DNA of 64,000 nucleotides from Bacilli bacterium (GTDB lineage: Bacteria > Bacillota_I > Bacilli_A > ML615J-28 > CAG-698): NCBI GenBank assembly GCA_031553555.1, contig JAVBLL010000003.1, forward strand, positions 40,359-104,358, read 5' to 3'. A model generated the notes under the pieces. That model was not told the DNA's origin, did no database searches, and worked only from the letters and a program-made list of their open reading frames with translations. Below are positions 1,733 to 54,521 of this stretch, one piece after another (position 1 is the first letter of the stretch; every line of letters starts with the position of its first letter). The position numbers were made by a program, and so were the translations under genes.

Positions 1733-1771
1733 AATAAAAGTGCTATTTAAAATAAATATATAAACAAATAC

Positions 1772-1811
1772 AAAAGCCAAATATGAAGTTTTTAATCATA
1801 TTTGGCTTTTT
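1772..1811 (+). terminator. rho-independent terminator
   Basis: AAAAGCCAAATATGA ... TCATATTTGGCTTTT stem followed by T residues. Confidence 0.7.
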
Positions 1812-1946
1812 ACTATTTTATAAAATTTTTCTTGCAATTATTTCAAAAAAATGATAAAATATTCTCGTTTACAATTACTAAACAAAAAGTTTACAATCTT
1901 AAAACAAAGAAGTTTTAAGGTCATATGTAATTGTCAAGGGGGTTAC

Positions 1947-2480: not shown

Positions 2481-2496
2481 AGGAGAATGAATTAAT

Positions 2497-4008
2497 ATGG
2501 GAAACAAAGATATAATTATTGAATTAAAAAACGTCAACAAAGAATACGATGCAACAGTTGTTGTTGATGATGTCAACTTAGCCATTAAAAAAGGCGAGTT
2601 TGTAACTTTACTTGGGCCATCAGGCTGTGGAAAAACAACAACTCTTAGAATGATTGCTGGTTTTGAAATGGCGACTAGTGGAGAGATTTTACTGAATGGT
2701 AAAGATATATCATCTATCCCTCCTCATAAAAGACCAATTAACACTGTCTTTCAACGTTATGCACTTTTTCCTCATCTAGATGTTTATGACAATATTGCCT
2801 TTGGTTTAAAACTTAAAAAAGTGCCTGATGGAGAAAAGACTGATAAAAAAGGTAACCAAAAATATCGTCATCTCACAAAAGAGGAAATCGATAAAAAAGT
2901 TACAGGAGCTTTGAAAATTGTTGATCTTGAAGAATTTGAATGGCGTGACATTGCGACTTTATCAGGTGGACAGCAACAACGTGTGGCCATTGCTAGAGCT
3001 ATTGTAAATGAACCAGAAATCTTACTTCTAGATGAACCTCTTGGAGCCCTTGACTTAAAAATGCGCAAAGAGATGCAAGTTGAATTAAAAGAAATGCATA
3101 GCAAACTAGGGATTACTTTTATTTATGTAACGCATGACCAAGAAGAAGCACTAACAATGTCAGATACAATTGTCGTTATGAAAGATGGTATGATTCAACA
3201 AGTAGGAACTCCAAAAGCCATTTATGATGAACCAGCCAATGCGTTTGTTGCCAATTTTATTGGAGAAAGTAATATTTATAGTGGAACTATCATTGATGAT
3301 ACACATGTTTTGTTTTTGTCTCAACGTTTTGAATGTGTTGATAAATTTCCTAAAAATGAAAAAGTCGATGTTGTTTTAAGACCAGAAGATATTTTAATGG
3401 TTGATAAAGGTAAAGGAATGGTTGATGGAAAAATTGTTTCAAGAACTTTTAAAGGTGTTTATTATGAATATGTTTTAATGGTTGGTAAAAACGAAGTTGT
3501 CATTCAAAATACAAAATGTTTTGATGAAGGTTTAATTATGGGGATAACTGTTGAGGCAGATAATATCCATATTATGAGTAAAGAATTTACAAGTAATAAA
3601 TATGATGGTTATATTGATAAACACAATAATGTGATTTTTGCTGATGGCAAGTTTGTTTGTGATGTGACGCAGTTAATACCAGGAACAACATTAGATGAAG
3701 ATGGTTATTTAATAGCAAGTGACGGAACTATTTATGATTTAACTGATGCCGATGTCAAGGTTGAGGTTGGTTTAAATGAAATTGAAATTATCGATAATGA
3801 AGAAGATGGTATTGTCAGTGGAGAAATTATTTCAATTATTTATAAAGGTGACCACTATCAATTAATTATCCGTACTGAAGAAGATGAAGATTTTGTTGTT
3901 GATACTGAATGGTCCTATAATGAATTTGATAAGGTTTCAGTAATGATTAAACCAGAAGATATTCATATGAAATTGATTAATGAGGCAAAAAACTATGTCA
4001 AAGGTTAG
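2497..4008 (+). CDS. potA: spermidine/putrescine ABC transporter ATP-binding protein, extended form (503 aa)
   Basis: Walker [10 protein letters not shown], signature LSGGQQQR and Walker B LLLDEP are present. It is followed by potB/C/D-type genes. Confidence 0.9.
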
Positions 4009-4798
4009 ATTTAAGCGTAAGTATCTATCGATACCTTATCTAATTTTTCTAGTTTGTTTTGTTGTGATCCCATTGTTATTAATTATTTATTATGCATTGA
4101 GCAATGAAGATGGTTCAATATCTCTAAGTAACTTTATTAATTTCTTTGGCAATAAAGATAAGATTGGACTTTTATCAGTTAGTATAATAATCGGGGCCTT
4201 AAATACAGCCTTATGTGTTTTAATTGGTTATCCTATTGCTATGATTTTATCGAAAAATAAACGTGGTAACAATAAAATGTCAGTAATCATTTTATTATTC
4301 ATTATGCCAATGTGGATTAACTTTGTTTTAAGAACCGCAGCTACTCGTGATTTGTTATATTGGATTGGTATTGATGGTGGTAATTATCCATATTTAGCAA
4401 CAATGTTTGGGATGGTTTATAACTATTTACCATTCACGATTTTACCATTATATACAACAATGTTGAAAATGGACAAGAGTTTAATTGATGCATCATATGA
4501 TTTAGGGGCTAATAAAGTGCAAACTTTCGTAAAAACGACAATACCTATGACTATGCCTGGTATTATCAGTGCAGCACTAATGGTATTCATGCCAACAATG
4601 TCTAGCTTTGTTATTAGTGATGTTATGGGCGAAAGAAAAATTCAACTTATTGGTAATACAATTCAGTTTAACTTTGACCAAATGCGTTGGCATGAAGGAA
4701 GTCTGATTGCGTTCATTATGCTAATTATTATTGGTATTAGTATGCTACTTACAAAAAACATTCAAAAAGAAGAAAATGCTCGAGGTGGCTTATGGTAA
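3995..4798 (+). CDS. potB: spermidine/putrescine ABC transporter permease
   Basis: Six-TM BPD-type permease in operon order after potA. The ATG at 3995 has GAGG upstream; the start at 3980 is the alternative. Confidence 0.85.
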
Positions 4799-10297: not shown

Positions 10298-10334
10298 TAT
10301 TGTATTTTATAAAACTATATATTTTTAGATTAAT

Positions 10335-10415
10335 ATTGCCAAAAACCTTGCAATAATATAAAAATTGCCAAAAACCTTGCAATAATATAAATATTGCCAA
10401 AAACCTTGCAATAAT
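10335..10415 (+). promoter_or_regulatory. three tandem 29-bp repeats, each carrying ATTGC-N10-GCAAT; the third overlaps a putative -35
   Basis: ATTGCCAAAAACCTTGCAATAATATAAA starts at 10335, 10364 and 10393. TTGCAA (10405-10410), a 17-nt spacer and TATACT (10428-10433) precede the satD-like gene. Confidence 0.65.
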
Positions 10416-10456
10416 TGATTTTTTTTGTTATACTATTATTAGGAGGATACAATTAT

Positions 10457-11146
10457 ATGATTTATTATATTTTAATAGGCGACATGATTGATTCTAAAAA
10501 GATAAATTATGAACAGAGGAGAAAAATTCAAAGTTCTTTAAAAGAATGTTTGGATAGAATCAATATAAAATATTCTGAATACCTTGTAACGGAAATGACT
10601 ATAACGCTTGGAGATGAATTTCAAGGAATGTTTCGTAACATTGATAAAATATTTGAAATTATTACGATTATTAATGTGAGCTTCAATGTATATTTTAGAT
10701 ATGGCATAGGAATAGGTCAAAATTATACAGATCTTAATAACAAAATTTCCATTGGTATGGATGGTCCAGCGTGGTGGGAAGCTAGAAATAATATTGAAGA
10801 AATTAGAAATAAACATGAAAAAGGGATTAATAACAAAACATCAATGATAATAACTGGGTTAAAAGATAAAACAATTATTGAATTAATTAATTCAATTTTA
10901 TCTTTTTGTTCTTATATTTATGTAAAATGGACAGAGCCAGAAAAAATGATAATTTTAAAAATAGTTGAGCAAATTGGATTGATATCAAGTTTTAATCAAA
11001 GAGAACTTGCAAAGAAAAATGAAATAGATCCTACATATTTAAACAAAAAATTAAAATCATCTAGATTTTTAGATTATTGTGATAGTTTGAATGCAGTTAA
11101 TGATGCAATTAATTATAACATTGCAAAGGAGCAAATGTATGAATAA
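10457..11146 (+). CDS. SatD-family protein (nucleotidyl-cyclase-like N-terminal domain plus C-terminal HTH-like region)
   Basis: MIYYILIGDMIDSKK and LGDEFQGMF resemble SatD-family motifs. The C-terminus QRELAKKNEIDPTYLNKKLK looks like an HTH. AGGAGG RBS precedes the ATG at 10457. Confidence 0.65.
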   Translation: MIYYILIGDMIDSKKINYEQRRKIQSSLKECLDRINIKYSEYLVTEMTITLGDEFQGMFRNIDKIFEIITIINVSFNVYFRYGIGIGQNYTDLNNKISIGMDGPAWWEARNNIEEIRNKHEKGINNKTSMIITGLKDKTIIELINSILSFCSYIYVKWTEPEKMIILKIVEQIGLISSFNQRELAKKNEIDPTYLNKKLKSSRFLDYCDSLNAVNDAINYNIAKEQMYE

Positions 11147-15308: not shown

Positions 15309-15382
15309 AGGGGTATAGTTCAACGGTAGAGCAGCGGTCTCCAAAACCGTAGATGTGGGTTCGAATCCTACTACCCCTGCCA
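15309..15382 (+). tRNA. trnW: tRNA-Trp (anticodon CCA)
   Basis: Acceptor AGGGGTA/TACCCCT, anticodon loop CTCCAAA, T-arm GGTTCGAATCC and an encoded CCA end. Confidence 0.95.
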
Positions 15383-15400
15383 TTATATAATTTTTTATAT

Positions 15401-15477
15401 GGCGATCGTGGCGAAGTGGTTAACGCTCTGGATTGTGGCTTCAGCATTCGTGGGTTCGATTCCCATCGGTCGCCCCA
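15401..15477 (+). tRNA. trnH: tRNA-His (anticodon GTG) with G-1
   Basis: Extra 5-prime G pairing with the discriminator C. Anticodon loop TTGTGGC, T-arm GGGTTCGATTCCC and an encoded CCA. Confidence 0.95.
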
Positions 15478-15488
15478 GTTGAGTAACT

Positions 15489-15537
15489 AACAAGATATTG
15501 TACAGTTTTTATTAGACTGTCCAACATCTTGTTTTTT
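15489..15537 (+). terminator. hairpin plus T-run after tRNA-His
   Basis: AACAAGAT ... ATCTTGTT with an inner GTACAG/CTGTCC pairing, followed by TTTTTT. It abuts the stop codon of the minus-strand transposase gene. Confidence 0.6.
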
Positions 15538-16774
15538 ATTTCTCATAAAACTCTTTTTCAAATTGATTGGGTGTTTTATTTTTTAATGTATTATGCGGTC
15601 TGTAATCATTGTAAAATTTAACATATTCTTCAAGCGATTGTTTTACTTCATAAAAATTAGTGAAGACCATTCTATTTAGTTCCTCTTTTCGATAAAAGGA
15701 AAAGAATGACTCTGCAACAGCATTATCATAAGGATTTCCAACATTTGAGAATGATTGAAGTACATCTAAAGATTTAAGCAAATTACAAAATTCATAAGCG
15801 GTATATTGAGTTCCACGATCACTATGAAACATCAAATCTTTTGGCTCATTTCTTTTTTCATAAGCCGCCTTAAATGTATTGATTACTAAATTAGAATTAT
15901 TTATATACGAGGCTTTTGCGCCAACTATTTTTCTGGAAAATAAATCGATAACAATACAAACATAATAGGAATTGCCATTTACTTTTATCGTGGCAATATC
16001 ACTTACCCATACTTTATTTGGAGCATCTTGAGTAAATTTTCGCAATAGCATGTTTTTATAAAATGGATTATAGTTTCCAGAAGGATATTTTTGTTTTTTT
16101 GTAATCAATAGCGGAGACAAATTAAGTTCTTTCATTAAATTATGTATTTTTTTCTCAGATGTTATATAGCCCAAATCTTTTAGTTTGGCTTCAATTTTTT
16201 TTGCACCAAAACGGGATTTGCTTTTTTCAAAAATCTCTTTTATTATTGGTTTTAGTTGTTCATCTTTAATTTCATAAGTAGTCTTGTCAACTCTTCTAAA
16301 ATGGTGATTATAAAACGTCCCTACTTTCACATTGAAAATTCTGCACATTTCTTTTACTGGATATAGACCAAATAGTTTTTCAATTGCTTCAAGTCGTATT
16401 TTCAGAGAAGATGTTTTGAAGCAGCCGGCTTTTTCATATATTTCTATTTGCCTGTTTTTTCTTTTCAATTCATTTTGAAGAGTTATAATATCGCTATAAG
16501 TGAATTTATTTTCATGTCTAGAAGAGTGTACTGTATATAATTTTTTCCAATAATAAAGAGTGCTTCTAGATATATTATATTCATTCATAATTTGACTAAT
16601 AGGAATATTATTATTTATTTTTTCAATTATTTCTTTCTTCACCTTATCCATAAATTTCTCCTAAATAAATAATAACATAAATTTATTTTAATAAAAAATT
16701 AATTATTATAGTAATTATCATATAATTGTTATAAAATATAACAAATAATTTAAAAAAAATTAAAAAAATGTATA
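15499..16774 (-). mobile_element. possible extent of the IS3-like element (ends uncertain)
   Basis: TGTACAGTTTTTATTAG at 15499 versus the reverse complement of AAAAAAATGTATA ending at 16774 gives only a weak inverted-repeat match. No matching target-site duplication was seen. Confidence 0.3.
15536..16651 (-). CDS. IS3-family (IS150-like) transposase, single uninterrupted ORF
   Basis: N-terminal HTH (ISRSTLYYWKK) and an rve/DDE core (WVSDIATI, HSDRGTQYTAYEF, NPYDNAVAESFF, YRPH). Confidence 0.85.
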   Translation of the reverse strand: MDKVKKEIIEKINNNIPISQIMNEYNISRSTLYYWKKLYTVHSSRHENKFTYSDIITLQNELKRKNRQIEIYEKAGCFKTSSLKIRLEAIEKLFGLYPVKEMCRIFNVKVGTFYNHHFRRVDKTTYEIKDEQLKPIIKEIFEKSKSRFGAKKIEAKLKDLGYITSEKKIHNLMKELNLSPLLITKKQKYPSGNYNPFYKNMLLRKFTQDAPNKVWVSDIATIKVNGNSYYVCIVIDLFSRKIVGAKASYINNSNLVINTFKAAYEKRNEPKDLMFHSDRGTQYTAYEFCNLLKSLDVLQSFSNVGNPYDNAVAESFFSFYRKEELNRMVFTNFYEVKQSLEEYVKFYNDYRPHNTLKNKTPNQFEKEFYEK

Positions 16775-16818
16775 CTTTTTTAGATTTTATGATATAATAT
16801 ATTGAAAGGAGAAATGAA

Positions 16819-18141
16819 ATGTTTACAAATATAAAAATTGAAAATTTTCAATCACTAGTTAATCTTGAAGTTGATTTACTGAAGACAAACAACAATCCAA
16901 AAAAAATGATAGTAATTTATGGCGAAAATGGAGTTGGAAAAACAAATTTTGCTACAACTTTTCATATGCTATTAGAAACAATTAGAACCATGTCTATAAG
17001 AGAGAGGTTAGTAGAGTTATTGGAAAAGGATAAGGATAAAAAAGAGTTTTCTTTTTTTGAATCTATCATTAAAGACTATTATAGTGATACAGAGAGTATA
17101 ATTAAAAAATATAAAACACAAGATTCAAATGAAAATATGTTTATTGAATATAAATTTAAAATTAAAAGTAAAAAAGGAACCTATCATTTAGAATATAATA
17201 ACTTTGAATTGGTTTCTGAAAGGCTGGATTATGTTTTGAATTCTAATCAAATTTGTTTTTTTAATATAACGAATAACAAGGATAAAACAAAAATAAACGA
17301 AAAAATTTTCACAAATAAGCAATATTATAAGCAATTTGATGAAGAATTAAATAAGTATTGGGGTAAACATAGTTTTCTATCAATTTTATATAATGAAATA
17401 GATGATAAAAAGAGAGGCTATGTTAAAAAAAATGTAGCAAAAGAATTATTTGATGTATTATTTTTCTTTTTGAGTGTTAATACAAAAATAAAAAATAAAA
17501 ATAAAGAATTTGGTGTCTTTGGAACAAGTAATAAAAATATTCATGATTTTTGTACGGGAAAAATATCAGTAAAAGAAGAAAATGTTTTAGACAAAACTGC
17601 TATAATGTTAAAACAGTTGTTTACTAATATGTATTCAGACATAAAAGATGTATATTATAAAAAAGAGTTTATTGATAATAAAATAAATTATCAATTATAT
17701 GTAAAAAAATTAGTTTATAATAATTTATTAGAGATAAATTTTGTAAAAGAATCTACAGGGACACAAAATTTATTGGATCTTATTCCTTATATTTTACAAG
17801 CATTGAAAGGTAATGTGGTTATTATTGATGAAATGGATTCAGGAATTCATGATATTTTAATCAACAATCTTCTGAAAAATATAAAAGAATATATAAAAGG
17901 TCAATTAATTATTACTACACATAATACTTTGTTACTGGAGTCTGCATTATCTAAAGAAAATATATATATATTTATAGTAAATCATAATGCTGAAAAAAAA
18001 TTAATTCCGCTAACAAGTTTTGATGAACGACAACATAAGAACTTTAATATGAGAAAAAGGTACCTTACAGGTTTATATGGTGGCATACCTTATACAACGG
18101 ATATAGATTTTGATGAAATAGCTAATTATTTAAAGGATTAG
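16819..18141 (+). CDS. ABC-type (AAA_15/AAA_21-like) ATPase of the OLD / AbiLi / AriA class
   Basis: Walker A GENGVGKTN, signature-like STGTQN, Walker B VVIIDEMDSGIHD and TTHN. GGAG RBS. Confidence 0.8.
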   Translation: MFTNIKIENFQSLVNLEVDLLKTNNNPKKMIVIYGENGVGKTNFATTFHMLLETIRTMSIRERLVELLEKDKDKKEFSFFESIIKDYYSDTESIIKKYKTQDSNENMFIEYKFKIKSKKGTYHLEYNNFELVSERLDYVLNSNQICFFNITNNKDKTKINEKIFTNKQYYKQFDEELNKYWGKHSFLSILYNEIDDKKRGYVKKNVAKELFDVLFFFLSVNTKIKNKNKEFGVFGTSNKNIHDFCTGKISVKEENVLDKTAIMLKQLFTNMYSDIKDVYYKKEFIDNKINYQLYVKKLVYNNLLEINFVKESTGTQNLLDLIPYILQALKGNVVIIDEMDSGIHDILINNLLKNIKEYIKGQLIITTHNTLLLESALSKENIYIFIVNHNAEKKLIPLTSFDERQHKNFNMRKRYLTGLYGGIPYTTDIDFDEIANYLKD

Positions 18142-18145
18142 TTAA

Positions 18146-18748
18146 ATGGGGAGAGAACTTAATTATTTAAAAGCTGTAGTAATAGTTCACGGAAAATCGG
18201 AAAAACAAATATGTAATTTTATTAAGTCTAATTTGAGAATTAATATTTTTATTGAAAGCGATAAAAATGGAGAAAAGGCAATTCAAATAACCAGTTTAAT
18301 GAAGAGAACCTTAAATAATAAGAAATTTAAAAGTTTTAAATCATTAAAAAGTTTTTTTGATGACCTTCAAATTGATAAAGAAACAAAGCAAATTGCTGAT
18401 GGTTTTAAAATTTTTATTATAATGGATACTGATGATTGTACAGAACGACAAAAACAAGATTTTCAAAATAAGGCTATGTTCAAAGATCATTGGGCATATG
18501 ATTATATTGTACCAATTTGGAATTGTCCGAATTTGGAGGAAGTTTTAAGGAAATCGGGCATAAAATTCAAGAAAAAAGGCAAAAAACAAAAGGATGAATA
18601 TATTGATATATTTCCTACAGATGAAAAATATAAAAAATCTGATGTATTGCAAATTAAAGAATTTTACAATATATTGGAAAATAATAATAATACTAATATG
18701 AATATTTTCGTTGATTTTTGTCTGGAAATTTTACAAAGAAAACAATAA
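18146..18748 (+). CDS. RloB/AbiLii-like (TOPRIM-type) small protein, partner of the ATPase
   Basis: VVIVHGKSEKQICNF resembles the RloB CEGekTE motif. IIMDTDD is a DxD-type motif. PIWNCPNLEEVL resembles the RloB SNPcFE motif. It lies 4 nt after the ATPase gene. Confidence 0.6.
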   Translation: MGRELNYLKAVVIVHGKSEKQICNFIKSNLRINIFIESDKNGEKAIQITSLMKRTLNNKKFKSFKSLKSFFDDLQIDKETKQIADGFKIFIIMDTDDCTERQKQDFQNKAMFKDHWAYDYIVPIWNCPNLEEVLRKSGIKFKKKGKKQKDEYIDIFPTDEKYKKSDVLQIKEFYNILENNNNTNMNIFVDFCLEILQRKQ

Positions 18749-18848: not shown

Positions 18849-18876
18849 TGGGTTACTAACCCCATCGGTCGCCCCA
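18849..18876 (+). repeat. direct repeat of the tRNA-His 3-prime end (att-like)
   Basis: TGGGTTACTAACCCCATCGGTCGCCCCA versus tRNA TGGGTTCGATTCCCATCGGTCGCCCCA (15451-15477). Confidence 0.85.
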
Positions 18877-18888
18877 TTTAAGACTCTT

Positions 18889-18916
18889 AAACTAGGTTGA
18901 AAAGCCTAGTTTTTTT
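18889..18916 (+). terminator. hairpin terminator belonging to the repeated tRNA-His flank
   Basis: AAACTAGG ... CCTAGTTTTTTT. The same structure recurs at about 21487-21514 and about 23749-23777. Confidence 0.7.
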
Positions 18917-19012
18917 GTTGTTTAGGGTGGGTTTGTCGAAATTTGTCGGTCGAAAAATGTAGAAATATATGTTTATATATGATATTCTATATTAAATTAG
19001 GAGTGCACAAAG

Positions 19013-21439: not shown

Positions 21440-21461
21440 TACGAGTGACGACAAGTACCAA

Positions 21462-21474
21462 ATCGGTCGCCCCA
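21462..21474 (+). repeat. direct repeat of the tRNA-His 3-prime end (att-like), followed by the conserved flank
   Basis: ATCGGTCGCCCCA is followed by TTTAAGACTCTTAGACTAGGTTGAGAAAACCTAGTTTTTT, as at 18877-18916. Confidence 0.75.
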
Positions 21475-21647
21475 TTTAAGACTCTTAGACTAGGTTGAGA
21501 AAACCTAGTTTTTTGTTGTTATAATGTTGTAGTAAAATATCGAAAATTTAAATAATTTTAACCCAAAATAATTAGAACAAAGGAAAAGCAATATAATTAT
21601 GCTAATTATCTTTTTGTTTATTAAGAAAAGATATAAAAAATATTATA

Positions 21648-23748: not shown

Positions 23749-23850
23749 GGACTAGATTGAAAAATCTAGTCTTTTTTGATGGTTAAGATCATTTTGTCGA
23801 AATTTGTCGGTCGAAAAATGTTGAAAAAAAGGATTTCTTGTGATATTGTT
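23749..23850 (+). repeat. partial copy of the tRNA-His downstream flank (no tRNA part)
   Basis: GGACTAGATTGAAAAATCTAGTCTTTTTT ... GTCGAAATTTGTCGGTCGAAAAATGT (23796-23821) matches 18889-18960. Confidence 0.7.
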
Positions 23851-24832: not shown

Positions 24833-26056
24833 ATGAAAAAATTTTTAAAATTGTCTTTTATTGCTATTATAGCATTTTTTGTGTTATCTTTATCAGCAAA
24901 TACTAAAGCAACAACTGCCATGGGAAATGACAAATGGGTAATTGCTGTTAATGGAAATCAACACTATATTTATAATGATTCACCTTCATTTACTGAAAAT
25001 GCTTCAAGATTTACAATACGTTTTGAAACTAGTTATGGAAGTAGTGGAATGGGAGTATACAGTTTATATCGATATTCATCTCCAGGAGTAAAAGAATATT
25101 TATATCAAAATGCTACTATGCCACATGGCGAAGAAACGGTTACCGTTATTGGATATACTGGTGAGTTTTATTTAAGTGCTAATGGAATGTATTATGATGT
25201 TGATGTCGAGAGTTGGGTAATAGATACTTATAATCCAATTATTAATGATTATAAATTTACAATTCGCACAGTAGAATTATTTTTCCTTCAAGGACAAAAT
25301 AATACTATAAACCCAGCGTCTTTACCGTCTGTTTTCTTTAAAGTTGTAAATCCGAATGATATGGTTAGTATGACAATAGAATTAAATGGAGGCATTGCTG
25401 TTCCGTTCTCAGCAAACCCACTAGCATTTGACTACCAAGAAGCATTACCATACCACTATATGTGTCTTAGTAAAGGACATTATAAAATAACAATTACTGA
25501 TGTATGGGGCGCAACTAGTGTTTATCAATTTGGATATACATCTGATTTAATCGTTGATTTTATTCAAGGTCAACCATTTCAAACAAACGATACTACTGTT
25601 GCTTTTAAGGTAACTTCATTTGTTGAATCAGTAGTATTTATTTATAAAAATTATTCTCCAGCAGTTCCAATGGCAGGAAGTCCAGTATATGATTATCATG
25701 TAGTTAATGGTCAATATATGTTTATTGCTGAAGGATATTATGCAATGCTTATTTTAGATATTTTTGGTGGATATCATAGTGTTAATTTCACTATAAGATT
25801 CACTGCGCCAACAGTATATTTTAATAATGTAGAAGCAACAAGCACTCAAACTCTTGTTTCGGTTTTACAAACTGGTGGCTTAGTAGCAACTTTTGATGGC
25901 AATGGAAGAACGATTGTTAGTGCAACATATGAATATAATTTTGGAAGTCCAGTTTCTTTTACATCAGGGCAAACATTTAAAGCAGTTGGAAATTATGTGT
26001 TTAAAGTAACAGATGATAGAGGAAAAACAACTACTGTATCAGCTTTTGTTTATTAA
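24833..26056 (+). CDS. secreted protein with three repeated beta-rich modules
   Basis: Signal peptide ending ANTKA. Recurrent module ends are GHYKITITDVWGATSVYQFGY, GYYAMLILDIFGGYHSVNFTI and GNYVFKVTDDRGKTTTVSAFVY. Confidence 0.7.
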   Translation: MKKFLKLSFIAIIAFFVLSLSANTKATTAMGNDKWVIAVNGNQHYIYNDSPSFTENASRFTIRFETSYGSSGMGVYSLYRYSSPGVKEYLYQNATMPHGEETVTVIGYTGEFYLSANGMYYDVDVESWVIDTYNPIINDYKFTIRTVELFFLQGQNNTINPASLPSVFFKVVNPNDMVSMTIELNGGIAVPFSANPLAFDYQEALPYHYMCLSKGHYKITITDVWGATSVYQFGYTSDLIVDFIQGQPFQTNDTTVAFKVTSFVESVVFIYKNYSPAVPMAGSPVYDYHVVNGQYMFIAEGYYAMLILDIFGGYHSVNFTIRFTAPTVYFNNVEATSTQTLVSVLQTGGLVATFDGNGRTIVSATYEYNFGSPVSFTSGQTFKAVGNYVFKVTDDRGKTTTVSAFVY

Positions 26057-26061: not shown

Positions 26062-27756
26062 TTGTTAAGAAAGATACTAAATATATATTTAGTATCTTTC
26101 CCCTTTGTTAATACCCGCGAATATATATATGATATTGCAAATCGCTTAGATAAAGAAATTTTGCCTAATAGCGGCGGAACAAAGACTTATACTTACCACC
26201 CGGATGGCAGTATAAAAAGCGAGAAGATGAATAATGGAACTCCAATTGCGTATAATTATGAAAAAGGTAGACTTGTGAAGCGCGGATTGGTTTCGTATGG
26301 ATACGATAACCTTGGCAATTGTACCAATTTTGGTGGACTAAACTTAGCATGGGAACGCGGGAGCCTGCTAAAGGGCTATGGTACTCATGTTTATGATTAT
26401 AATGCCCAAGGAGTAAGGTATAGAAAAACCGGAGGAACAACTTCAATCTACTTCCACGACGGGACAAAACTTTTAGAAGAGCAGAGGGGCAATGTGCAAA
26501 TTAGGTATCTATATGATGCTGAAGGTATAATTGGATTTAGTATTCCTAGTGATAGAAACAATGACGATTATTTTTTCTCTAAGGATGTTAGCGGAAATGT
26601 TAGGGCGATTTTTAGAGCACAGGTCGTAGATGGTATTTATCCAAAGACAACTGAGGTGGCTAGGTACGAGTATGATGCTTGGGGAAATACCACAGTTTCG
26701 TCAATAGGAACTAACACCATAGGTGGGGTTTCAGTAGCTCAGTTTAACCGAATCAGATGGAAGGGACAGTATCAAGACGAATCAGATTTATATTATATTG
26801 GCGGAAGGTATTATAGCCCAGCGACCAAGCAGTATTTAAGTCCTGCTGGTCCCGAGTCAGCTTTTGGCAATGCTGCAATAATTTACGGACTAAATCAATA
26901 CTCTCTTTGCTTGACAAATTCTGTAAACATGGAGTATAATAATTATACGATTGCAACCAATGCTGAGCTTAGCTATGACCCTGATGCATTGTCTAACTGG
27001 AAGCTCTGGTGGAGTAGATACGGCGGATTTGTAATAGGTGGCGTTTTGGTTGTAGTAGGCATAATTGCTTGTCTTATACCAGGTGGTCAAGCTATTGGCG
27101 CTGGTTTAATAGTATCCGGGGTGTCACAAGCAATTTCGACAGGGCTGCAGCTTGCGGGAGTCAAATCCAAGCTGGCAATGCAGATAATGTCAGGACTTAA
27201 CATTGTTTGCGGACTGATAATGAGCTTTACACCACTGGCCCCTATGGGGTGGAGCATGATTGGTGCAGGAATTGGCGGCTATATTGCTGAAAAGTTAGGC
27301 GGAAGCTATGCTGTAGGTTGGGTAGTAGGTAGCATTGTTGGCGGGATAATTGGTAGTTATGCTTATAAAAGCGTTCAGGCTATGAGAACTAATGCGGCAG
27401 CAAGAGCTAATGCTAAGGCTTTGGCAAGTGCAGCGGGAGCGGAAGCAGCAAGAGATGCCAAAGTAGCTGAATTGCAAAATACGCTTACAAAAAAACAATT
27501 AAAAGAAGTCGCTGCAGTCGTGGGTGGTTATGATAAAGTAACAGGAGATATTGCAGTTGGAGTAAAATATTTTGATAAATTGCCATATTGTGCAGAAGCT
27601 CGGGTTGTAGAGCAATTAGGTGGAATGAGTAATATAAGTAACATAGTTATGACTTCGGCAATTCGCCCTCATAATATGACGGTAGTTGCAGTATGCAACT
27701 ATTGTCAGTCAATATACTCTACTACAAATTTTCTACCAGGAACTCCGTTTCAGTAA
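26062..27756 (+). CDS. 5-prime-truncated RHS/YD-repeat toxin with a glycine-zipper hydrophobic linker and a C-terminal deaminase-like domain
   Basis: YD repeats (YTYHPDGS, YGYDNLGN, YEYDAWGN) and an RHS core end (RWKGQYQDESDLYYIGGRYYSPATKQYLSPAG). The hydrophobic Gly-rich region spans about 27024-27372. CAE is at 27589-27597 and CNYC at 27694-27705. No plausible ATG or RBS lies at the 5-prime end. Confidence 0.75.
   Translation: MLRKILNIYLVSFPFVNTREYIYDIANRLDKEILPNSGGTKTYTYHPDGSIKSEKMNNGTPIAYNYEKGRLVKRGLVSYGYDNLGNCTNFGGLNLAWERGSLLKGYGTHVYDYNAQGVRYRKTGGTTSIYFHDGTKLLEEQRGNVQIRYLYDAEGIIGFSIPSDRNNDDYFFSKDVSGNVRAIFRAQVVDGIYPKTTEVARYEYDAWGNTTVSSIGTNTIGGVSVAQFNRIRWKGQYQDESDLYYIGGRYYSPATKQYLSPAGPESAFGNAAIIYGLNQYSLCLTNSVNMEYNNYTIATNAELSYDPDALSNWKLWWSRYGGFVIGGVLVVVGIIACLIPGGQAIGAGLIVSGVSQAISTGLQLAGVKSKLAMQIMSGLNIVCGLIMSFTPLAPMGWSMIGAGIGGYIAEKLGGSYAVGWVVGSIVGGIIGSYAYKSVQAMRTNAAARANAKALASAAGAEAARDAKVAELQNTLTKKQLKEVAAVVGGYDKVTGDIAVGVKYFDKLPYCAEARVVEQLGGMSNISNIVMTSAIRPHNMTVVAVCNYCQSIYSTTNFLPGTPFQ
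26069..26100 (+). terminator. strong hairpin directly after the 407-aa gene (no clear T-run)
   Basis: GAAAGATACTAAATA ... TATTTAGTATCTTTC. It lies inside the first codons of the RHS track ORF, which are therefore unlikely to be coding. Confidence 0.5.
26911..26940 (+). promoter_or_regulatory. promoter-like TTGACA-18 nt-TATAAT inside the RHS coding sequence
   Basis: TTGACA at 26911-26916 and TATAAT at 26935-26940. The same sequence is reiterated in four downstream junction modules. Confidence 0.55.
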
Positions 27757-27776
27757 CGTAAAAGGAGAAGAATATT

Positions 27777-28361
27777 ATGAAAGATTTATATAAAAATAAA
27801 GAAGATTGTATGGCTTTTTCTAATGAAACATTAGAAAAATATTTATTCGATAAAATCAAGAAAGAACAAGGCATTGATTTAGTTTATAGTTATTGCGATG
27901 ATAAACATAGTGATTTATTTCTTGAAATAAAAAGAAGCAACCAATTAAGTCCAGATGAACCAAATGATTATCTTGATAAAATTCATAGAATTGATTGTGT
28001 ATCTTTTGATGGAGATAGAGATGATTTTACAATCCATTTTCATAATTCAGCTATGGTCTCGGTATTTCTTTTTGACGCACAATTTATGTTTATTGATGAT
28101 ATTTGTAAAAAAGATGTGCGGGGCATAGAAGGGTGCATTGTCTATGAAGGATATCTTCGAGATAAGACGCATGAGCAAATTCTTGAAATATTCTTTAATC
28201 TATTAAAGATATTGCATAGTACGACAAAAATTACGTATGAGGAAAATTTTGTTTCCCGTATCGGTTACTATTCAAAATATAATTATACGATTAAACTAAT
28301 TAAACCCAATTGTGAAAAACAGGCTATTCAGTATGACAATTTTCTGTTTCTAATCAATTAG
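27777..28361 (+). CDS. putative cognate immunity protein of the deaminase-like toxin
   Basis: It starts 20 nt after the toxin stop with an AAAAGGAG RBS. No recognised motif. A paralog lies downstream. Confidence 0.55.
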   Translation: MKDLYKNKEDCMAFSNETLEKYLFDKIKKEQGIDLVYSYCDDKHSDLFLEIKRSNQLSPDEPNDYLDKIHRIDCVSFDGDRDDFTIHFHNSAMVSVFLFDAQFMFIDDICKKDVRGIEGCIVYEGYLRDKTHEQILEIFFNLLKILHSTTKITYEENFVSRIGYYSKYNYTIKLIKPNCEKQAIQYDNFLFLIN

Positions 28362-28498: not shown

Positions 28499-29098
28499 AT
28501 GTCATTATATCAACCAAATGAATTATGTTTACAATTTGAAGATTGGGAAATAACAAAATATTTAATTGAACCACTTAAATTAAGATTTCCTGAATTGGGG
28601 CTTCTTGACTTTGATAATAAGGTTGAAGATAGATTAACAACTGGAATAAAATCTATTACTTTTTATCCAGATAGAGCAGATATTTTAAAAAGGGATTTTT
28701 TTGGTGTTTTTTTTGAAAAAGGCAAAATGGTTGCAATATTGATTTATGATAGAGAATTTGTGTTTATTGATGACTCTATGAAGGAATTTATCGGTCATTA
28801 AAATACCGACGATAATGCCTTTTATCAGGGAACATTGAGAAATAAGACACATAAGGAAATTTTAGAGTTAGTTAAAGCTTTTATTGAATTATTAATTGAT
28901 ACAGAGGATTATCAAATTTTAGAAAATAAAATAAGTAAGTATAATACCGAAGATATGCTACATAGGGCAATTGATTTTCCTGAATGGAAAGCTGCTCATC
29001 CATATTGTTATTATAATGTTTTTCTTAAAAAACAAAAACCAGGTGAATCTATTCAATTTGAAAACATTACATTTCACATAGTAAATTCTTTTAAGTAA
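28499..29098 (+). pseudogene. paralog of the 27777-28361 immunity gene interrupted by one in-frame TAA
   Basis: Track ORFs 28442-28801 and 28835-29098 are in the same frame, separated by TAA 28799-28801. FVFIDD and LRNKTHKEILEL match FMFIDD and LRDKTHEQILEI of the paralog. Confidence 0.6.
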
Positions 29099-29106: not shown

Positions 29107-29243
29107 AAAAAAGGGATCAGGGAGCGTGTAGGATTTATTTCTTCCCGCTCTTTTTCTTTATCTCTTAATTTGACAAATCCCGTAAACATGGAGTATAATA
29201 GTTATATAATTGCAACCAATGACGAGATTAGTTATGATCTATA
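29107..29243 (+). repeat. junction module 1: hairpin, then TTGACA-18-TATAAT, then an RHS-derived remnant
   Basis: TTGACA 29170-29175 and TATAAT 29194-29199. The remnant encodes NMEYNSYIIATNDEISYD, compared with NMEYNNYTIATNAELSYD in the RHS gene. Confidence 0.8.
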
Positions 29244-29348
29244 GTCAATGCCTAATTGAAAATTTTGTTGGAATCAAGTTCCTCTTGGTGCAAAAACACA
29301 TAAATTGCTTACAGATTTTTGGCGCAACTTTTAAAAATAGGAGGTCAC

Positions 29349-29855
29349 ATGAAAAGCATAGAGGCATTAAAAAAAAGGTTATCGGCGGAAAATACCTTGC
29401 TGATACAAGATGAACATGGATGCGTAAAAACAGTTGAATTTAAATGGGAAAATTCTGCGACAGACACTGAGATTTCTCAATTTGAAAATGATAATAAAAT
29501 TATTTTGCCTGAAGACTACAAAAAATTTTTAAAGATCTCTAATGGAACTACGCTTTTTATGGATACATGGGGATACCAGATTTATGGATTAAGTGAAATT
29601 ATGGAAGAGACAGAAAAAGCAAAATGGCCTGATTTCAAAGATACATGGCTTGTCTTTGGAAGACATCAATCAGATGGCGATTTGTATATTTTTGATTTGG
29701 AAAAAGTTAAAAATAATGAAAAGGTATACCTTTTATACGGCATGGAATGCGACCATCCTTCCGATTATTTTTATTTAGGTAGTTTTGGAACATGGCTTGA
29801 TAGATTAATTGTGTCTCAAGGTTCACAATATTGGTTATGGTTTCCTAACCATTAA
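29349..29855 (+). CDS. SMI1/KNR4 (SUKH-1) family immunity protein
   Basis: ILPEDYKKFLKISNGTTLF, IYGLSEI and LVFGRHQSDGDLYIFD are typical SMI1/KNR4 features. AGGAGG RBS precedes the ATG at 29349. Confidence 0.8.
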   Translation: MKSIEALKKRLSAENTLLIQDEHGCVKTVEFKWENSATDTEISQFENDNKIILPEDYKKFLKISNGTTLFMDTWGYQIYGLSEIMEETEKAKWPDFKDTWLVFGRHQSDGDLYIFDLEKVKNNEKVYLLYGMECDHPSDYFYLGSFGTWLDRLIVSQGSQYWLWFPNH

Positions 29856-29890: not shown

Positions 29891-29990
29891 AAAAAAGAGT
29901 GTGAAGGGTTCATTTCTTTCTCACTCTTTTCATTATCTCTTAATATTTGACATATCCAGCGAACATGGAGTATAATAGTTATATAATTGA
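29891..29990 (+). repeat. junction module 2
   Basis: Hairpin AAAAAAGAGTGTGAAGGGTTCATTTCTTTCTCACTCTTTT. TTGACA 29947-29952 and TATAAT 29971-29976. Confidence 0.8.
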
Positions 29991-30153: not shown

Positions 30154-30621
30154 ATGAACAAAACAAATATGATATCAATTAACTTTAGATTAGTTATAAC
30201 AATGATGACATCTCATGAACTATCAAATGAAAAAGTGGATAAGATTTTGCATATTATAAAAAACCAATTTAATTATACTAATGAAATATTTAGGTTTACA
30301 AATAAGGGTTTTCATGAAGTGGACATAGATTTATTTGATGTGATATTTTCAAGTACAGATATTTATAAGGATTTAGACAAGTTAATATATATTTGTGAAG
30401 AAATACTAGTTACAATTGATAATTCAATAGATTTTATTATTGGTAGTTTAGACACTAGTAGTAGGGTATTAGAATATGAAAAAAATCATGATATTAGTAG
30501 TGGATTACTAATTACATCTCAATTAATTCAAGGAACTAATCCTTACTATTCTTCCAAGACATGTAATGCATATGTTAAAAATCTAGATGATGATTGTTTT
30601 GGGGTATATTCTAGTGTTTGA
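30154..30621 (+). CDS. hypothetical protein in an immunity slot
   Basis: GGGAGG RBS. It is preceded by junction module 2. No motif recognised. Confidence 0.5.
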   Translation: MNKTNMISINFRLVITMMTSHELSNEKVDKILHIIKNQFNYTNEIFRFTNKGFHEVDIDLFDVIFSSTDIYKDLDKLIYICEEILVTIDNSIDFIIGSLDTSSRVLEYEKNHDISSGLLITSQLIQGTNPYYSSKTCNAYVKNLDDDCFGVYSSV

Positions 30622-30651: not shown

Positions 30652-30835
30652 AAAAAGAACGTCAAGAATTCATTTCTTCCTCGCTCTTTTTCTTTATCTC
30701 TTAATTTGACAAATCCCGTAAATATAGAGTATAATAATTATACGATTGCAACTAATGCTGAGCTTAACTATGACCCAGAGGCACTGTCTAGTTGGAAGCT
30801 TTGGTGGAGTAGATAGGGCTTGTTTGTAATAGGTA
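30652..30835 (+). repeat. junction module 3 with the longest RHS-derived remnant
   Basis: TTGACA 30706-30711 and TATAAT 30730-30735. The remnant reads NIEYNNYTIATNAELNYDPEALSSWKLWWSR followed by a TAG where the RHS gene has TAC. Confidence 0.85.
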
Positions 30836-30928: not shown

Positions 30929-31339
30929 ATGGAGGAACTAAAAGTGGAAGTTATTAAAAAAATAAATGAGATTTGTTGGGCGGACTGTTCTACAGATATT
31001 TTTCAAATTGACTATGAAAAAATTATAATAAAAATAGTCTTTTATGGAGAAATCGAACGTTATGTAACTATTCAATGCAACAATTATATTGGATTCACGT
31101 TTGTTGGACATTGGGATGAAAATATTATTGAAGATATTAATATTGATACTGAAGGTGAATTAATAAAACAGTCATTAAAAAACATACGACGCAATTATTA
31201 TAAAAATCCTAATGATAATTTTTCTTTTTTGGGCGGAGGGGTAAAAAAGTTTGATAATATTTGGTATCAATTAAACATAAAGCTAATTGATGGAAATATT
31301 ATCAAAATAGTTTGCGAGAGTTTTTTGCTTAATTTATAG
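30929..31339 (+). CDS. hypothetical protein in an immunity slot
   Basis: ATGGAGG context. It follows junction module 3. No motif recognised. Confidence 0.5.
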   Translation: MEELKVEVIKKINEICWADCSTDIFQIDYEKIIIKIVFYGEIERYVTIQCNNYIGFTFVGHWDENIIEDINIDTEGELIKQSLKNIRRNYYKNPNDNFSFLGGGVKKFDNIWYQLNIKLIDGNIIKIVCESFLLNL

Positions 31340-32121: not shown

Positions 32122-32207
32122 AAAAAAGAGCGTGAAGAATTCATTTTTCCTCGCTCTTTTTCTTTATCTTCTAATTTGACAAATCTCATAAATATGAAGT
32201 ATAATAT
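32122..32207 (+). repeat. junction module 4
   Basis: Hairpin AAAAAAGAGCGTGAAGAATTCATTTTTCCTCGCTCTTTTT. TTGACA 32176-32181 and TATAAT 32200-32205. Confidence 0.8.
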
Positions 32208-32270
32208 TTTTAAGAAAATGGCGAACCTTTTTATAACTTTTGTGACTATATAAGTGAGGAGGTAAAAACT

Positions 32271-33899
32271 TTGAATAAAAATGAGTTAAAAGAAAAAATA
32301 GTTGATTATGTTGATAAAGTATTTTTTTATTGTGTTAAAAGATGTAGTAACAGAATGGATGCAGAAGATTTATCTCAAACAATACTTTTAGAAGTAATTA
32401 AAAATATCGATAAAGGGGCTCATATTGAAAACTTTGATTATTATATTTGGGCAGTGTGTAAAAATCAATATAATACTTATTTAAGAAGAATAATTAAGGA
32501 TAGAAATAATATTAGTTTTGTAGATGATATTAATGAAATAGAAGATTTTAAAACATCTCTTGATAAAATATTGGAAGACGAAAAAATCAGAAGAATGAAC
32601 CAAGCCATTAAACTATTGAGTAAAGACTACGCAGAAATACTTTACGCTTATTATGTAGAAGATAAAACTCTTAAGTTCATAGCCAAAGAACAATCATTAC
32701 CTCTAGGAACAGTTAAAAGAAAACTGTATGTTATTAGACAAAAGTTAAAGGAGTATTTAAAAATGGAAAAATTAAATGGCAAAAAAGCATATGTGCCAAA
32801 GAATTTCACATCTTGTATAGCATGTCAAAATTTTGGAACTTATAATCCATATGATTATGTTAAGTCACTAATAAACAAAAATTTATTATATCATTCATAT
32901 AATAATTATTGTAGTTTGGAAGATTACTCATTAGAACTAGGTATTTCGTTACCTTATATTAAAGATATTGTAGATCAACTTGTAAATGCTACATTATTAT
33001 TTAAAACAAAAAATAATAAATATGTTACTAATTTCCCGTATATTACAAAAGAAATCTTAAATAAAAGTAATAACGTTTTACTAGAAAACCATAAAGAATA
33101 TATTGATGAATTAATTAAGTTTGCTAAAGCTCATATAGATGAGTATCGGGAATTAGTAACTTATGCAAATCTTTCAAATGGTGAATTAATGTGGAGTTTT
33201 TGTTTGTATTTAAATTATATAGTTTTAAATGATGTAAAACCTGAATTTTCCTATCATGAACATCCCGGAGGAGGAAGATGGGATTTCTACATGACAGATT
33301 TGAGAGATATGAATGATTTAATGTATGATATGTCAATTAATACATATAAAGATGGAATTGATAAAGTTAATGCATATGCATTTCCATGTGCAAATGATAC
33401 TGGAAGGTTAGCGTTTAATAAATGTGCCAATGGTCAAGAGAATTATGTTCTATTAAATGAATTATTACATCATTGTAATGCTACTTATGATAGTGTTGTA
33501 AATAGAATATTTTGTGACCATAAAAATCAAATTAACGATTATATTGATAAAGGATTTTTAAAAGTAGTAGATAACAAGATTAAGTTTAACTTCCCATTCT
33601 TTAAATATCATGATTTCAAAAAAGTAGAAAAAATGATGTATAGTGATGAGCTAAATGTAGCAAAAGAAAAATTACAAATAATAATTAATAAATTAGTAAG
33701 TAACATGAAAAATTATCTTCCGGAATATTTAAATGATTATACTAATTCATTAATCTCTAATCAATTATGGAATATTCAAAGTTTAGTAGTAGAAGCATTT
33801 AAAGAAGCTAAATTATTAGATTTAAAAGAAGAAAAAGAATACTTTCCATATAATATGATTATGATAACATCAGATATAAATATGATTTATGAAAAATAG
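32271..33899 (+). CDS. sigma-70/ECF-like region 2 and region 4 protein with a roughly 370-aa C-terminal extension
   Basis: DAEDLSQTILLEVIKNI is region-2-like. LSKDYAEILYAYYVEDKTLKFIAKEQSLPLGTVKRKLYVIRQKLKEY is a region-4 HTH. TTG start lies 8 nt after GGAGG. Confidence 0.7.
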   Translation: MNKNELKEKIVDYVDKVFFYCVKRCSNRMDAEDLSQTILLEVIKNIDKGAHIENFDYYIWAVCKNQYNTYLRRIIKDRNNISFVDDINEIEDFKTSLDKILEDEKIRRMNQAIKLLSKDYAEILYAYYVEDKTLKFIAKEQSLPLGTVKRKLYVIRQKLKEYLKMEKLNGKKAYVPKNFTSCIACQNFGTYNPYDYVKSLINKNLLYHSYNNYCSLEDYSLELGISLPYIKDIVDQLVNATLLFKTKNNKYVTNFPYITKEILNKSNNVLLENHKEYIDELIKFAKAHIDEYRELVTYANLSNGELMWSFCLYLNYIVLNDVKPEFSYHEHPGGGRWDFYMTDLRDMNDLMYDMSINTYKDGIDKVNAYAFPCANDTGRLAFNKCANGQENYVLLNELLHHCNATYDSVVNRIFCDHKNQINDYIDKGFLKVVDNKIKFNFPFFKYHDFKKVEKMMYSDELNVAKEKLQIIINKLVSNMKNYLPEYLNDYTNSLISNQLWNIQSLVVEAFKEAKLLDLKEEKEYFPYNMIMITSDINMIYEK

Positions 33900-33954: not shown

Positions 33955-34095
33955 GAAAAGCAATTATAGGTGAATTTTAATAGCTATAATAGAGAATTTA
34001 AACAAATATAAGTAATGAATGTCCCTATTGATTGTCCCATTTAAGAATAGTAAGGTTGAGTAGAAATACTTGATCTTTTTTGATGTTTTTGAGGA
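33955..34095 (+). repeat. degenerate copy of the islet right end, the tRNA-His 3-prime fragment and the flank
   Basis: ATTATAGGTGAATTTTAATAGCTATAATAGAGAATTTAAACAAATATAAG resembles 18800-18848. ATTGATTGTCCCATTTAAGAATAG resembles CATCGGTCGCCCCATTTAAGACTC. Confidence 0.5.
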
Positions 34096-54373: not shown

Positions 54374-54394
54374 TATAAAGTTATATGGAAATAA

Positions 54395-54521
54395 ATACCA
54401 TGTAATAAATTATCAAAATAGGTTATAATAATAGTAGTTAATAAAAGTGAAACAATCTTTTATTAACAATACTCAATGAAAATTTGGGTAAAAAATGTCT
54501 TGTTTAACAAGGCATTTTTTT
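54395..54521 (+). ncRNA. copy A of a repeated three-hairpin element ending in an intrinsic terminator (candidate sRNA or 3-prime UTR element)
   Basis: About 80 percent identical by eye to 58966-59089. Hairpins are TTAATAAAAG/CTTTTATTAA, CTCAA/TTGGG and AATGTCTTG/CAAGGCATT followed by a T-run. Confidence 0.45.

Follow-up and report, generated by a model that had tools for sequence, protein, structure and literature searches.

What might an RHS toxin gene be doing in a bacterial genome when it lacks its front end and any obvious means of being translated? This question is raised by a 64,000-nucleotide stretch of a Bacilli genome (GenBank assembly GCA_031553555.1, contig JAVBLL010000003.1, positions 40,359 to 104,358), which we refer to as "the window". 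Positions given for features in the window are counted from its first nucleotide, and the parts of the cassette and of the array that follows it lie on the plus strand. An open reading frame (ORF) at 26062-27756 encodes the end of an RHS protein, followed by a hydrophobic segment and, at the C-terminus, by a domain that an earlier note, made from the DNA letters alone, had taken for a deaminase-like toxin. Here, we argue, with a probability that we put at roughly three in four, that this ORF is an orphan rhs-CT cassette (CT, C-terminal region), i.e., the 3′ quarter of an RHS polymorphic-toxin gene without the N-terminal delivery part or a translation start. We describe the evidence for truncation, the neighboring immunity gene, the toxin domain, the segment that precedes it, and a predicted promoter embedded in the cassette, and we weigh other explanations of the locus.

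Truncation of the RHS gene

The cassette ORF (26062-27756) has 564 codons, and its sole possible start is a TTG codon without a ribosome-binding site (RBS). The frame opens ~14 codons 5′ of this nominal start, within the 3′ end of the preceding gene (24833-26056), which is read in a different frame. Inspection of the 5′ end by eye found neither an ATG nor a Shine-Dalgarno sequence, in agreement with the earlier note. That note also had the frame begin inside the terminator hairpin of the preceding gene; this part did not stand, since the nominal start is 7 nt before the hairpin. The hairpin itself (26069-26100) is intrinsic-terminator-like, with a 14-bp stem and a 4-nt loop followed by the T-rich CCCTTTGTT. 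It folds at −15.3 kcal/mol (z = −5.2 relative to shuffled sequences), takes up codons 3-13 of the cassette ORF, and was the only terminator-like site found in a scan of the region from 24.5 to 29.5 kb. The product of the preceding gene, 407 aa long, is predicted to be secreted and has a signal-like sequence at its N-terminus; it is not of the immunity type, and it has no Pfam or NCBIfam match. Neither an Rfam nor a tRNA scan gave a match in the cassette or its vicinity.

Comparison with homologous proteins defines how much of an RHS gene is present. By BLASTP, RHS homology begins at aa 19-21 (nt ~26116-26122) and continues to the core end, YYSPATKQYLSPAG, at 26809-26850. Because aa 21-564 can be aligned with aa 1696-2228 of an RHS protein of 2230 aa at a related locus, L006 (44.6% identity, E = 4e-120), we take the window ORF to be the last quarter of a large RHS gene; it is equivalent to the last ~24% of the L006 protein. 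The complete shell and the N-terminal delivery region are not in the cassette ORF, which holds only the equivalent of L006 aa 1696-2228. What is left of the RHS/YD shell is approximately the last 270 aa of the core (26116-26931), recognized with the NCBIfam model TIGR03696 and by BLASTP to L006 and three further loci (L003, L001, and L002). TIGR03696 (Rhs_assc_core, the core/plug domain) matches aa 204-290 with 40.7 bits, against a cutoff of 32.5 (E = 2.5e-10). The Pfam RHS_repeat model PF05593 has no match to the window ORF at E ≤ 0.1; proteins homologous to aa 21-564 do carry it. The 5′ truncation that the earlier note had proposed is thus borne out. No full-length RHS gene lies within the 64-kb window, where the longest ORF encodes 801 aa and there is no second RHS core, so that a complete gene sharing the core of the cassette, which the note had suggested looking for in the genome, is not found there. 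The cassette has a GC content of 38-41%, versus ~27% for the window.

When the cassette ORF was searched against 5.8 billion proteins, no more than 11 relatives came back. Among these, P0002 is co-linear with the window ORF over 96% of the query, and several others have the core and the hydrophobic part in common and differ in their C-terminal domains. L001 and L002 each hold a homologous frame of ~540 aa directly behind another toxin tail, its immunity gene, and a terminator hairpin. By contrast, the gene at L006 is intact: its RHS protein of 2230 aa closes with the same series of core end, hydrophobic region, and toxin, and a gene of the same immunity family comes next. The description of the cassette as orphan or silent therefore fits, given that it has no usable start, corresponds to the last ~24% of an RHS gene, shares its layout with L001 and L002, and has an intact form in L006. 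We considered whether the ~540-aa homologues are genuine short proteins, and rejected this idea because those in L001 and L002 lie behind other toxin/immunity pairs and terminators, and the L006 gene is full-length. The L001 frame does have an AGAGGA-N6-TTG sequence, which was taken as a start by a gene caller.

Several further observations concern these loci. The orphans of the window (from 26116), L001 (from ~859), and L002 (from ~950) begin at the same point of the RHS core, xYTYDKAxRL. The three are from different genomes, have 45-49% amino acid identity, and each lie shortly 3′ of a terminator hairpin. A shorter fragment in L001 runs from within the hydrophobic region to a terminal Tox-ART-HYD1 domain. 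A search for related loci with alignment A1 returned one genome locus, L003, which is very AT-rich. At positions 261-6075 of L003 is a full-length RHS gene of the same lineage that seems to stop inside its hydrophobic region. Located 3′ of it, in another frame, is a small ORF with the deaminase-like motif pair NCAE...ACSNC, followed by a SUKH-3 immunity gene; the small ORF has no Pfam match. The full-length RHS toxin carrier at L006 opens, at 1291-4290, with an SBP_bac_1 (solute-binding-protein-like) domain and a Big_3 domain, and its N-terminus has no obvious signal peptide. In two more loci, L008 and L009, over 30 consecutive small ORFs on the same strand lie 3′ of a gene for a 2289-aa RHS protein, forming a very large orphan/immunity array that includes a 169-aa immunity homologue and a SUKH-3 gene.

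The adjacent candidate immunity gene

Directly 3′ of the cassette is an ORF at 27777-28361 that encodes 194 aa. It has a Shine-Dalgarno sequence, AAGGAG, at 27762-27767, 9 nt 5′ of the ATG as read from the sequence. The predicted protein has no Pfam or NCBIfam match. Its family, which comprises 17 clusters, has no named member and no Pfam domain. The gene keeps its position: homologues lie directly 3′ of a homologous toxin in L001 (37% identity, E = 4e-38), L003 (61% identity), and L006 (66% identity). Two more pairs of toxin and immunity clusters were found, P0012/P0196, both on 949-bp contigs, and P0015/P0193, both on 3535-bp contigs; because the contig sizes match, each pair probably sits on one contig. 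The conserved synteny in the window, L001, L003, and L006 supports the identification of ORF 27777-28361 as a candidate cognate immunity gene, and agrees with the earlier proposal that the toxin has an immunity gene of its own.

A second, divergent paralogue of the immunity gene follows at 28499-29098. It is 27% identical over its full length (E = 6e-15) and has one in-frame TAA, at 28799-28801. This paralogue has its own AAGGAG RBS, and no repeat/promoter unit of the kind described below lies before it.

The predicted C-terminal toxin domain

The C-terminal domain of the cassette (27433-27753, aa 458-564) is best described as a minimal zinc-deaminase-like domain with a predicted cytidine deaminase (CDA) fold, an assignment drawn from homology, motifs, and structure prediction with AlphaFold2 and Foldseek. 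A domain of ~90 aa had been proposed; the domain is present, with a size by homology of 107 aa, of which ~85 aa form the conserved core. Two motifs stand out: CAE at 27589-27597 (aa 510-512) and CNYC at 27694-27705 (aa 545-548), with 32 residues between them. These coordinates and the spacing, like the position of the core end, are exactly as the earlier note had them.

Close homologues of the last 107 aa are few; one of them, P0014, has the domain behind a PT-HINT motif rather than an RHS core. A profile search of 1.84 billion representative proteins at a threshold of E ≤ 1e-3 extended the family to 244 representative clusters. Of the 153 scored matches, 148 have the domain at the very C-terminus, and its carriers are RHS, SpvB/TcdB-RHS, RHS-PT-HINT, choline-binding-repeat, and Listeria-Bacteroides-repeat (Flg_new) proteins. 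It is this extreme C-terminal placement, together with the unrelated delivery scaffolds, that identifies the domain as the C-terminal domain of polymorphic toxins. Some family members are from Clostridium beijerinckii, a Methanobrevibacter record, and a Streptomyces plasmid, and others, going by the sample names of the assemblies, presumably come from gut metagenomes. There was no match between the family and phages, and the one plasmid match is a Streptomyces HINT toxin whose C-terminal domain is unannotated.

Conservation centers on a deaminase-like motif pair. When 61 diverse members sharing <75% pairwise identity were aligned, C53, E55, C88, and C91 alone were invariant, and the motif CxE-(29-34 aa)-CxxC is kept in 129 of 130 full-coverage relatives. 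The family also has an R-P motif, described as invariant, before CxxC. Every invariant and near-invariant toxin residue is retained in the window ORF.

Domain libraries do not recognize the family. No deaminase family emerged, even at E = 10, when the whole ORF or the toxin domain by itself was scanned with Pfam and NCBIfam models, and when each of the 61 members was scanned, no Pfam or NCBIfam model reached its threshold. The weak matches that did appear are to PF00383 (4 of the 61 members, best E = 0.0094), to the tetrameric cytidine deaminase model TIGR01354 (also 4 of 61, best E = 6e-4), and to two further cytidine deaminase models in NCBIfam. The YwqJ-deaminase model PF14431 was matched by two members with E = 0.25, and PF14428 (DddA/SCP1.201-like) was not among the families listed for the 61. 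The suggestion in the earlier note that the domain is YwqJ-like or DddA-like is therefore not upheld.

Structural comparisons lead to the same group of enzymes as the weak profile matches. In a profile search against PDB sequences, the top matches are tetrameric cytidine deaminases and blasticidin-S deaminase (BSD), with E-values of 0.2-0.8 and with CAE and CxxC in register. AlphaFold2, given the 61-sequence alignment, produced a model with a predicted local distance difference test (pLDDT) score of 97.3 and a predicted template modelling (pTM) score of 0.88 in all five models. One helix of the model begins right behind C53, at residue 54, and another right behind C88, at residue 89; the beta4-beta5 strands cannot be made out. 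A Foldseek search of the PDB with this model gave 14 top matches that are all BSD (probability up to 0.87, query template modelling score [TMq] of 0.53-0.58, E = 0.09-0.3). Attempts with only six sequences were set aside. With the 6-sequence alignment, a profile search of the PDB yielded nothing beyond a spurious glycosyl-hydrolase match, and a first AlphaFold2 run was unreliable (pLDDT of 81, 64, 58, 48, and 38 across models; E ~0.4 to BSD) and has been superseded. In the structure search with this low-confidence model, DddA ranked only 46th.

Taken together, the invariant C..E/C..C residues and the AlphaFold model, whose closest structures are BSD and cytidine deaminases, lend good support, at the level of prediction, to a cytidine-deaminase-like fold in which a Cys3 site would bind zinc and the glutamate would be catalytic, in a family that lies outside current domain libraries. 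The earlier proposal of a deaminase-like toxin is upheld at the level of fold and motif, by the invariant CxE/CxxC, by the pLDDT-97 model with BSD at the top of the Foldseek results, and by the weak cytidine deaminase profile matches. That the toxin acts on nucleic acid can only be suggested by analogy, because the enzymes closest to it in structure deaminate free nucleosides.

The hydrophobic segment and the core/CT junction

Between the RHS core and the toxin domain is a Gly/Ala/Ile-rich hydrophobic segment (27010-27366, aa 317-435), delimited by hydropathy and motif count. It has about four stretches that resemble transmembrane (TM) helices, six GxxxG motifs, and 20% Gly, in keeping with the glycine-zipper segment described earlier. 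Hydrophobic modules occupy the equivalent position in P0002-P0007, P0011, L003, and L006. Two of these, P0007 and P0011, are canonical RHS proteins, and they also have a Gly-rich module between core and toxin. Across the toxin family as a whole, a hydrophobic stretch lies upstream of the toxin in 28 of 104 members, counting those with at least 60 aa upstream; the segment in the window is unlike the commoner GFxxYINxxWAQ type in sequence. Judged from these comparisons, the hydrophobic segment is a pre-toxin module seen across this RHS lineage. By analogy, we infer that it serves as a membrane-insertion or translocation module that is shielded inside the RHS cage.

Characterized Rhs proteins undergo C-terminal autocleavage by two DPxGL aspartyl-autoprotease motifs that precede the CT (PMC8636562). 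Neither DPxGL motif is present in the window ORF, which reads RYYSP...LSPAGPES...NSVNMEYNNYT in the region 26809-26950. The same substitutions are found in P0002-P0006, the main gene of L003, and L006 (7100-7260 of L006), giving a lineage pattern of RYYSP... and ...NPVNxxYNxYT, with YNxYT in place of the second DPxGL motif. P0007 and P0011, which are more distant, do have the canonical motifs.

The predicted embedded promoter and the downstream array

A predicted promoter with the sigma-70/sigmaA-type consensus, TTGACA-N18-TATAAT, is embedded in the cassette at 26911-26940, with a 12/12 match in its hexamers. It lies in frame on the L-T...Y-N codons of the RHS post-core sequence, at the place that DPxGL takes in canonical RHS proteins. 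Identical hexamers occur at the same codons in L001, L002, and L006. Given each gene's own codon usage, the joint chance of the four required codons is 2-4% per gene. In L001 and L002, neighboring Asn and Tyr codons are AAC and TAC. The low codon probability and these neighboring codons indicate that the promoter is under selection at the nucleotide level. We rejected the possibility that TTGACA and TATAAT are a by-product of AT-rich codon usage, because they are kept in the L001 and L002 genes, which have 48% GC and AAC/TAC neighbors.

The promoter is reiterated downstream. A promoter scan returned two 12/12 matches, and a count of TTGACA-N17-19-TATAAT found eight perfect matches in the window, versus 0.19 expected. 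Five of the eight, at 26911, 29170, 29947, 30706, and 32176, are copies of one repeated element. Each of the four downstream copies has a terminator-like hairpin on its 5′ side and a decayed piece of RHS coding sequence on its 3′ side, and each lies ahead of a gene. The second unit (29122-29298), made up of a hairpin, a promoter at 29170-29199, and a decayed RHS post-core remnant, is 5′ of a SUKH-1 immunity gene (29319-29855; SMI1_KNR4, E = 4e-17). The third unit (29899-29983, promoter at 29947-29976) is 5′ of the ORF at 30154-30621. The fourth (30658-30834, promoter at 30706-30735) is 5′ of the ORF at 30929-31339; its RHS post-core remnant, at 30697-30834, is 86% identical to 26902-27039 of the cassette and carries a stop codon. 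The fifth (32128-32212, promoter at 32176-32205) is 5′ of a 542-aa sigma-70-like gene (32271-33899), whose product has sigma-70 regions 2 and 4 and a long C-terminal extension.

The locus is an array of orphan cassettes and immunity genes, headed by the cassette at 26062-27756. Neither this array nor the embedded promoter figures in the earlier note, and nor does the occurrence of the hydrophobic module across the lineage. On the simplest reading, the promoter would keep the immunity genes expressed and would be the part of the cassette that survives decay. In Salmonella, main and orphan rhs genes have internal P2 promoters just 5′ of the DPxGL-coding region (PMC7043789), and the embedded promoter of the window parallels these.

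A proposed explanation and its alternatives

The orphan-cassette reading can be set out as a sequence of steps. In a full-length gene, such as the one for the 2230-aa protein of L006, the hydrophobic segment and the toxin, still unfolded, would lie inside the RHS cage. Once delivered, the toxin would be carried across the target membrane by the hydrophobic helices, which would insert in it, and would go on to bind zinc and deaminate a base. The most likely target, by analogy with DddA, SsdA, and BaDTF3, would be a cytosine in nucleic acid; a free nucleotide or nucleoside would be the alternative, given the closest structural relatives. In this genome, the cassette would not be deployable as it stands. 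Its embedded promoter would most likely keep the immunity gene transcribed, providing protection from neighbors armed with this toxin, and, should the genome contain a full-length rhs gene, the retained core would permit the cassette to recombine into it by homology.

Several observations weigh against this explanation. Classic orphan arrays follow a main gene, and no full-length RHS gene is present in the 64-kb window. The upstream neighbor is an unrelated secreted protein, again unlike classic orphan arrays. The DPxGL motifs are, to judge from the sequences, missing from this RHS lineage, which leaves the release step unexplained. As for the toxin, no fold or sequence match to a deaminase is significant (best E of 0.09 with Foldseek and 0.2 in the PDB profile search), and the best hidden Markov model match of a single member, E = 6e-4 among 61 scans, is short of conventional significance. 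The domain ends 13-16 aa after CxxC, and beta4-beta5 of the canonical fold appear in the model to be missing or vestigial. Lastly, the closest structures are free-nucleoside enzymes that are obligate tetramers.

There is also a more novel reading. The domain may belong to a minimal, unrecognized branch of deaminases, with a core of ~85-105 aa and no beta4-beta5, whose activity is unlike that of known DNA-deaminase toxins, acting, for example, on the nucleotide pool, on RNA or tRNA, or on DNA as an obligate oligomer. In this scenario, the toxin would be released from an RHS cage in which some other mechanism has taken the place of the aspartyl autoprotease, and would carry itself across the membrane by means of its glycine-zipper helices. 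We regard this combination as speculative and somewhat unlikely.

Another explanation is that the cassette is not silent. The embedded promoter could drive low-level production of a short protein, consisting of the hydrophobic segment and the toxin and made from a non-canonical start, with the immunity protein as its antitoxin; the pair would then be an internally expressed, toxin-antitoxin-like module. The conservation of the promoter at an equivalent position is consistent with this idea, as is the intactness of a 564-codon frame in a 27%-GC genome, and in Salmonella, internal P2 promoters and a CTG start give rise to toxic products that are neutralized by the immunity protein (PMC7043789). 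However, inspection of the region between the promoter and the immunity gene found no RBS-linked start that is conserved in the window, L001, and L002. Moreover, a product that opens with several TM helices would target the producer's own membrane, and the same promoter precedes units that have an immunity gene and no toxin, which fits immunity expression better. We therefore consider an internally expressed module to be quite unlikely.

The cassette could also be a decaying, functionless pseudogene fragment, left over from an RHS gene that was acquired horizontally and then lost its 5′ part by deletion. Its GC content, which differs from that of the window, would fit such an origin, as would the missing start codon, the lack of a main RHS gene in the window, the visible decay of the downstream units, and the stop codon in the second immunity paralogue. 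A decaying fragment would not, however, be expected to hold an uninterrupted 1.7-kb frame in an AT-rich genome, to keep all of the invariant and near-invariant toxin residues, or to be followed by an intact immunity gene with a strong RBS and a conserved promoter; and orphans with the same 5′ boundary are found in two other genomes. This account, too, strikes us as distinctly improbable.

Very unlikely, finally, is the proposal that the C-terminal domain binds zinc and is not a deaminase, being instead a treble-clef/zinc-ribbon-like binder or another hydrolase on a CDA-like scaffold that is toxic by binding or by a different chemistry. In its favor, no deaminase match is statistically significant, some members weakly match zinc-finger models (e.g., zf-Tbcl_FmdE, E = 0.0033), the C-terminal strands of the canonical fold are missing, and enzymes that are not deaminases, such as JAB, are also built on the deaminase-like fold (Iyer 2011, quoted in PMC3482391). 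Against it, zinc ligation alone needs no invariant Glu two residues after the first Cys, the 29-34-aa motif spacing is typical of CDA enzymes, and the PDB profile search, the Pfam and NCBIfam member scans, and AlphaFold2 with Foldseek all point to tetrameric CDA and BSD, with the motifs aligned in register.

Significance

If the toxin is an active nucleic-acid deaminase, it would, at ~85-105 residues, be smaller than the deaminase toxins now used in base editing, all of which are larger to our knowledge. The immunity protein would be a ready-made specific inhibitor, as in the combination that made the DddA/DddI and Sdd/Sddi pairs useful. The repertoire of polymorphic toxins gains a deaminase-like family of 244 clusters that has no Pfam or NCBIfam model. 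The locus also presents an RHS lineage that has a hydrophobic module ahead of the toxin and lacks the canonical cleavage motif, and a clean sequence-level case of a promoter that is maintained inside coding sequence. That promoter is the only conserved part of the decayed cassettes, where it presumably keeps orphan immunity genes expressed.

Other features of the window

Upstream of the toxin locus, the region at 15309-18748 has genes for tRNA-Trp and tRNA-His, then an IS3-type transposase with rve domains, on the minus strand, and an AAA_21 (AbiEii-like) ATPase gene, and continues with DUF4238, Fur, and PTPS-like genes; in appearance, it is a variable or defence-type region. Repeats of 64-76 nt with a terminator-like hairpin (families D4 and D6) lie between genes at 18859-18986, 21457-21520, 23772-23847, and 34022-34085, with copies on either side of the region that contains the RHS array. 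At 10331-10424, just 5′ of the ORF at 10415-11146, there are three tandem 29-nt copies of TTGCCAAAAACCTTGCAATAATATAAA, which may form an operator-like array. An intergenic segment of ~150 nt with the hairpin AACGTCTTGTTTAACAAGGCGTT is duplicated at 54366-54520 and 58937-59089; the two copies are 4.57 kb apart and have 74-92% identity.

Comparison with known systems

In structure, the toxin domain is most similar to tetrameric cytidine deaminase and BSD (PDB 1wn5/1wn6/2z3g, 4wif, and 2d30), with which it shares the Cys-Cys-Cys type of site, the motif spacing, and, in the predicted model, the order of secondary-structure elements through helix 3. It differs from them in sequence (14-20% identity), in a C-terminus that is ~20-35 aa shorter, and in the invariant R-P before CxxC. 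Moreover, those enzymes function in salvage or resistance, whereas the domain in the window belongs to a secreted toxin. With the deaminase toxins DddA (BaDTF1/SCP1.201), SsdA (BaDTF2), and BaDTF3 (PMC7901873, PMC13346905), it has in common a C-terminal toxin domain with a deaminase fold (predicted, in its case), a specific immunity partner (in its case a candidate), and carriage on RHS and other scaffolds. Unlike these toxins, it is smaller, and it has no detectable sequence relationship to them.

In prePAAR/Rhs and Tse6-type effectors of the type VI secretion system, hydrophobic helices are part of the toxin polypeptide and are proposed to insert in the membrane and translocate the toxin. 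A TM domain in the RhsNT is mentioned in PMC8636562. In contrast to the TM domains of those effectors, which are N-terminal, the helices encoded in the window are C-terminal to the RHS shell and directly precede the toxin. Also unlike those systems, the window locus has no identified chaperone gene.

Acquired interbacterial defence islands were reportedly described by Ross et al. in 2019, and two papers (PMC10470768, PMC10539506) name such islands and orphan-immunity arrays. The window array is like these in its run of immunity-type genes, one of them a SUKH member, in its toxin-gene remnants, and in its conserved repeats between genes. In contrast to those arrays, no recombinase gene was seen adjoining the array in the window, and its repeats derive from RHS coding sequence, each with a terminator and a consensus promoter.

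As a whole, the cassette is closely paralleled by orphan rhs-CT/rhsI modules known from Salmonella Typhimurium and E. coli (Poole 2011, PMC3150448; Koskiniemi 2014, PMC3967940; PMC7043789). These likewise consist of a 5′-truncated rhs gene with part of the core, a variable toxin, and a downstream immunity gene; they lack a delivery domain and have an internal promoter at the core/CT junction. The cassette in the window differs in belonging to a low-GC, Firmicute-type RHS lineage, in having no adjacent main rhs gene in the window, and in having a hydrophobic segment between core and toxin and no DPxGL; its promoter differs in being a perfect consensus that is reiterated before four further genes. 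The kind of system, an orphan RHS toxin/immunity module with a deaminase-type toxin, is already known, while the toxin family, the missing cleavage motif of the RHS lineage, and the reiterated promoter are new variants of it.

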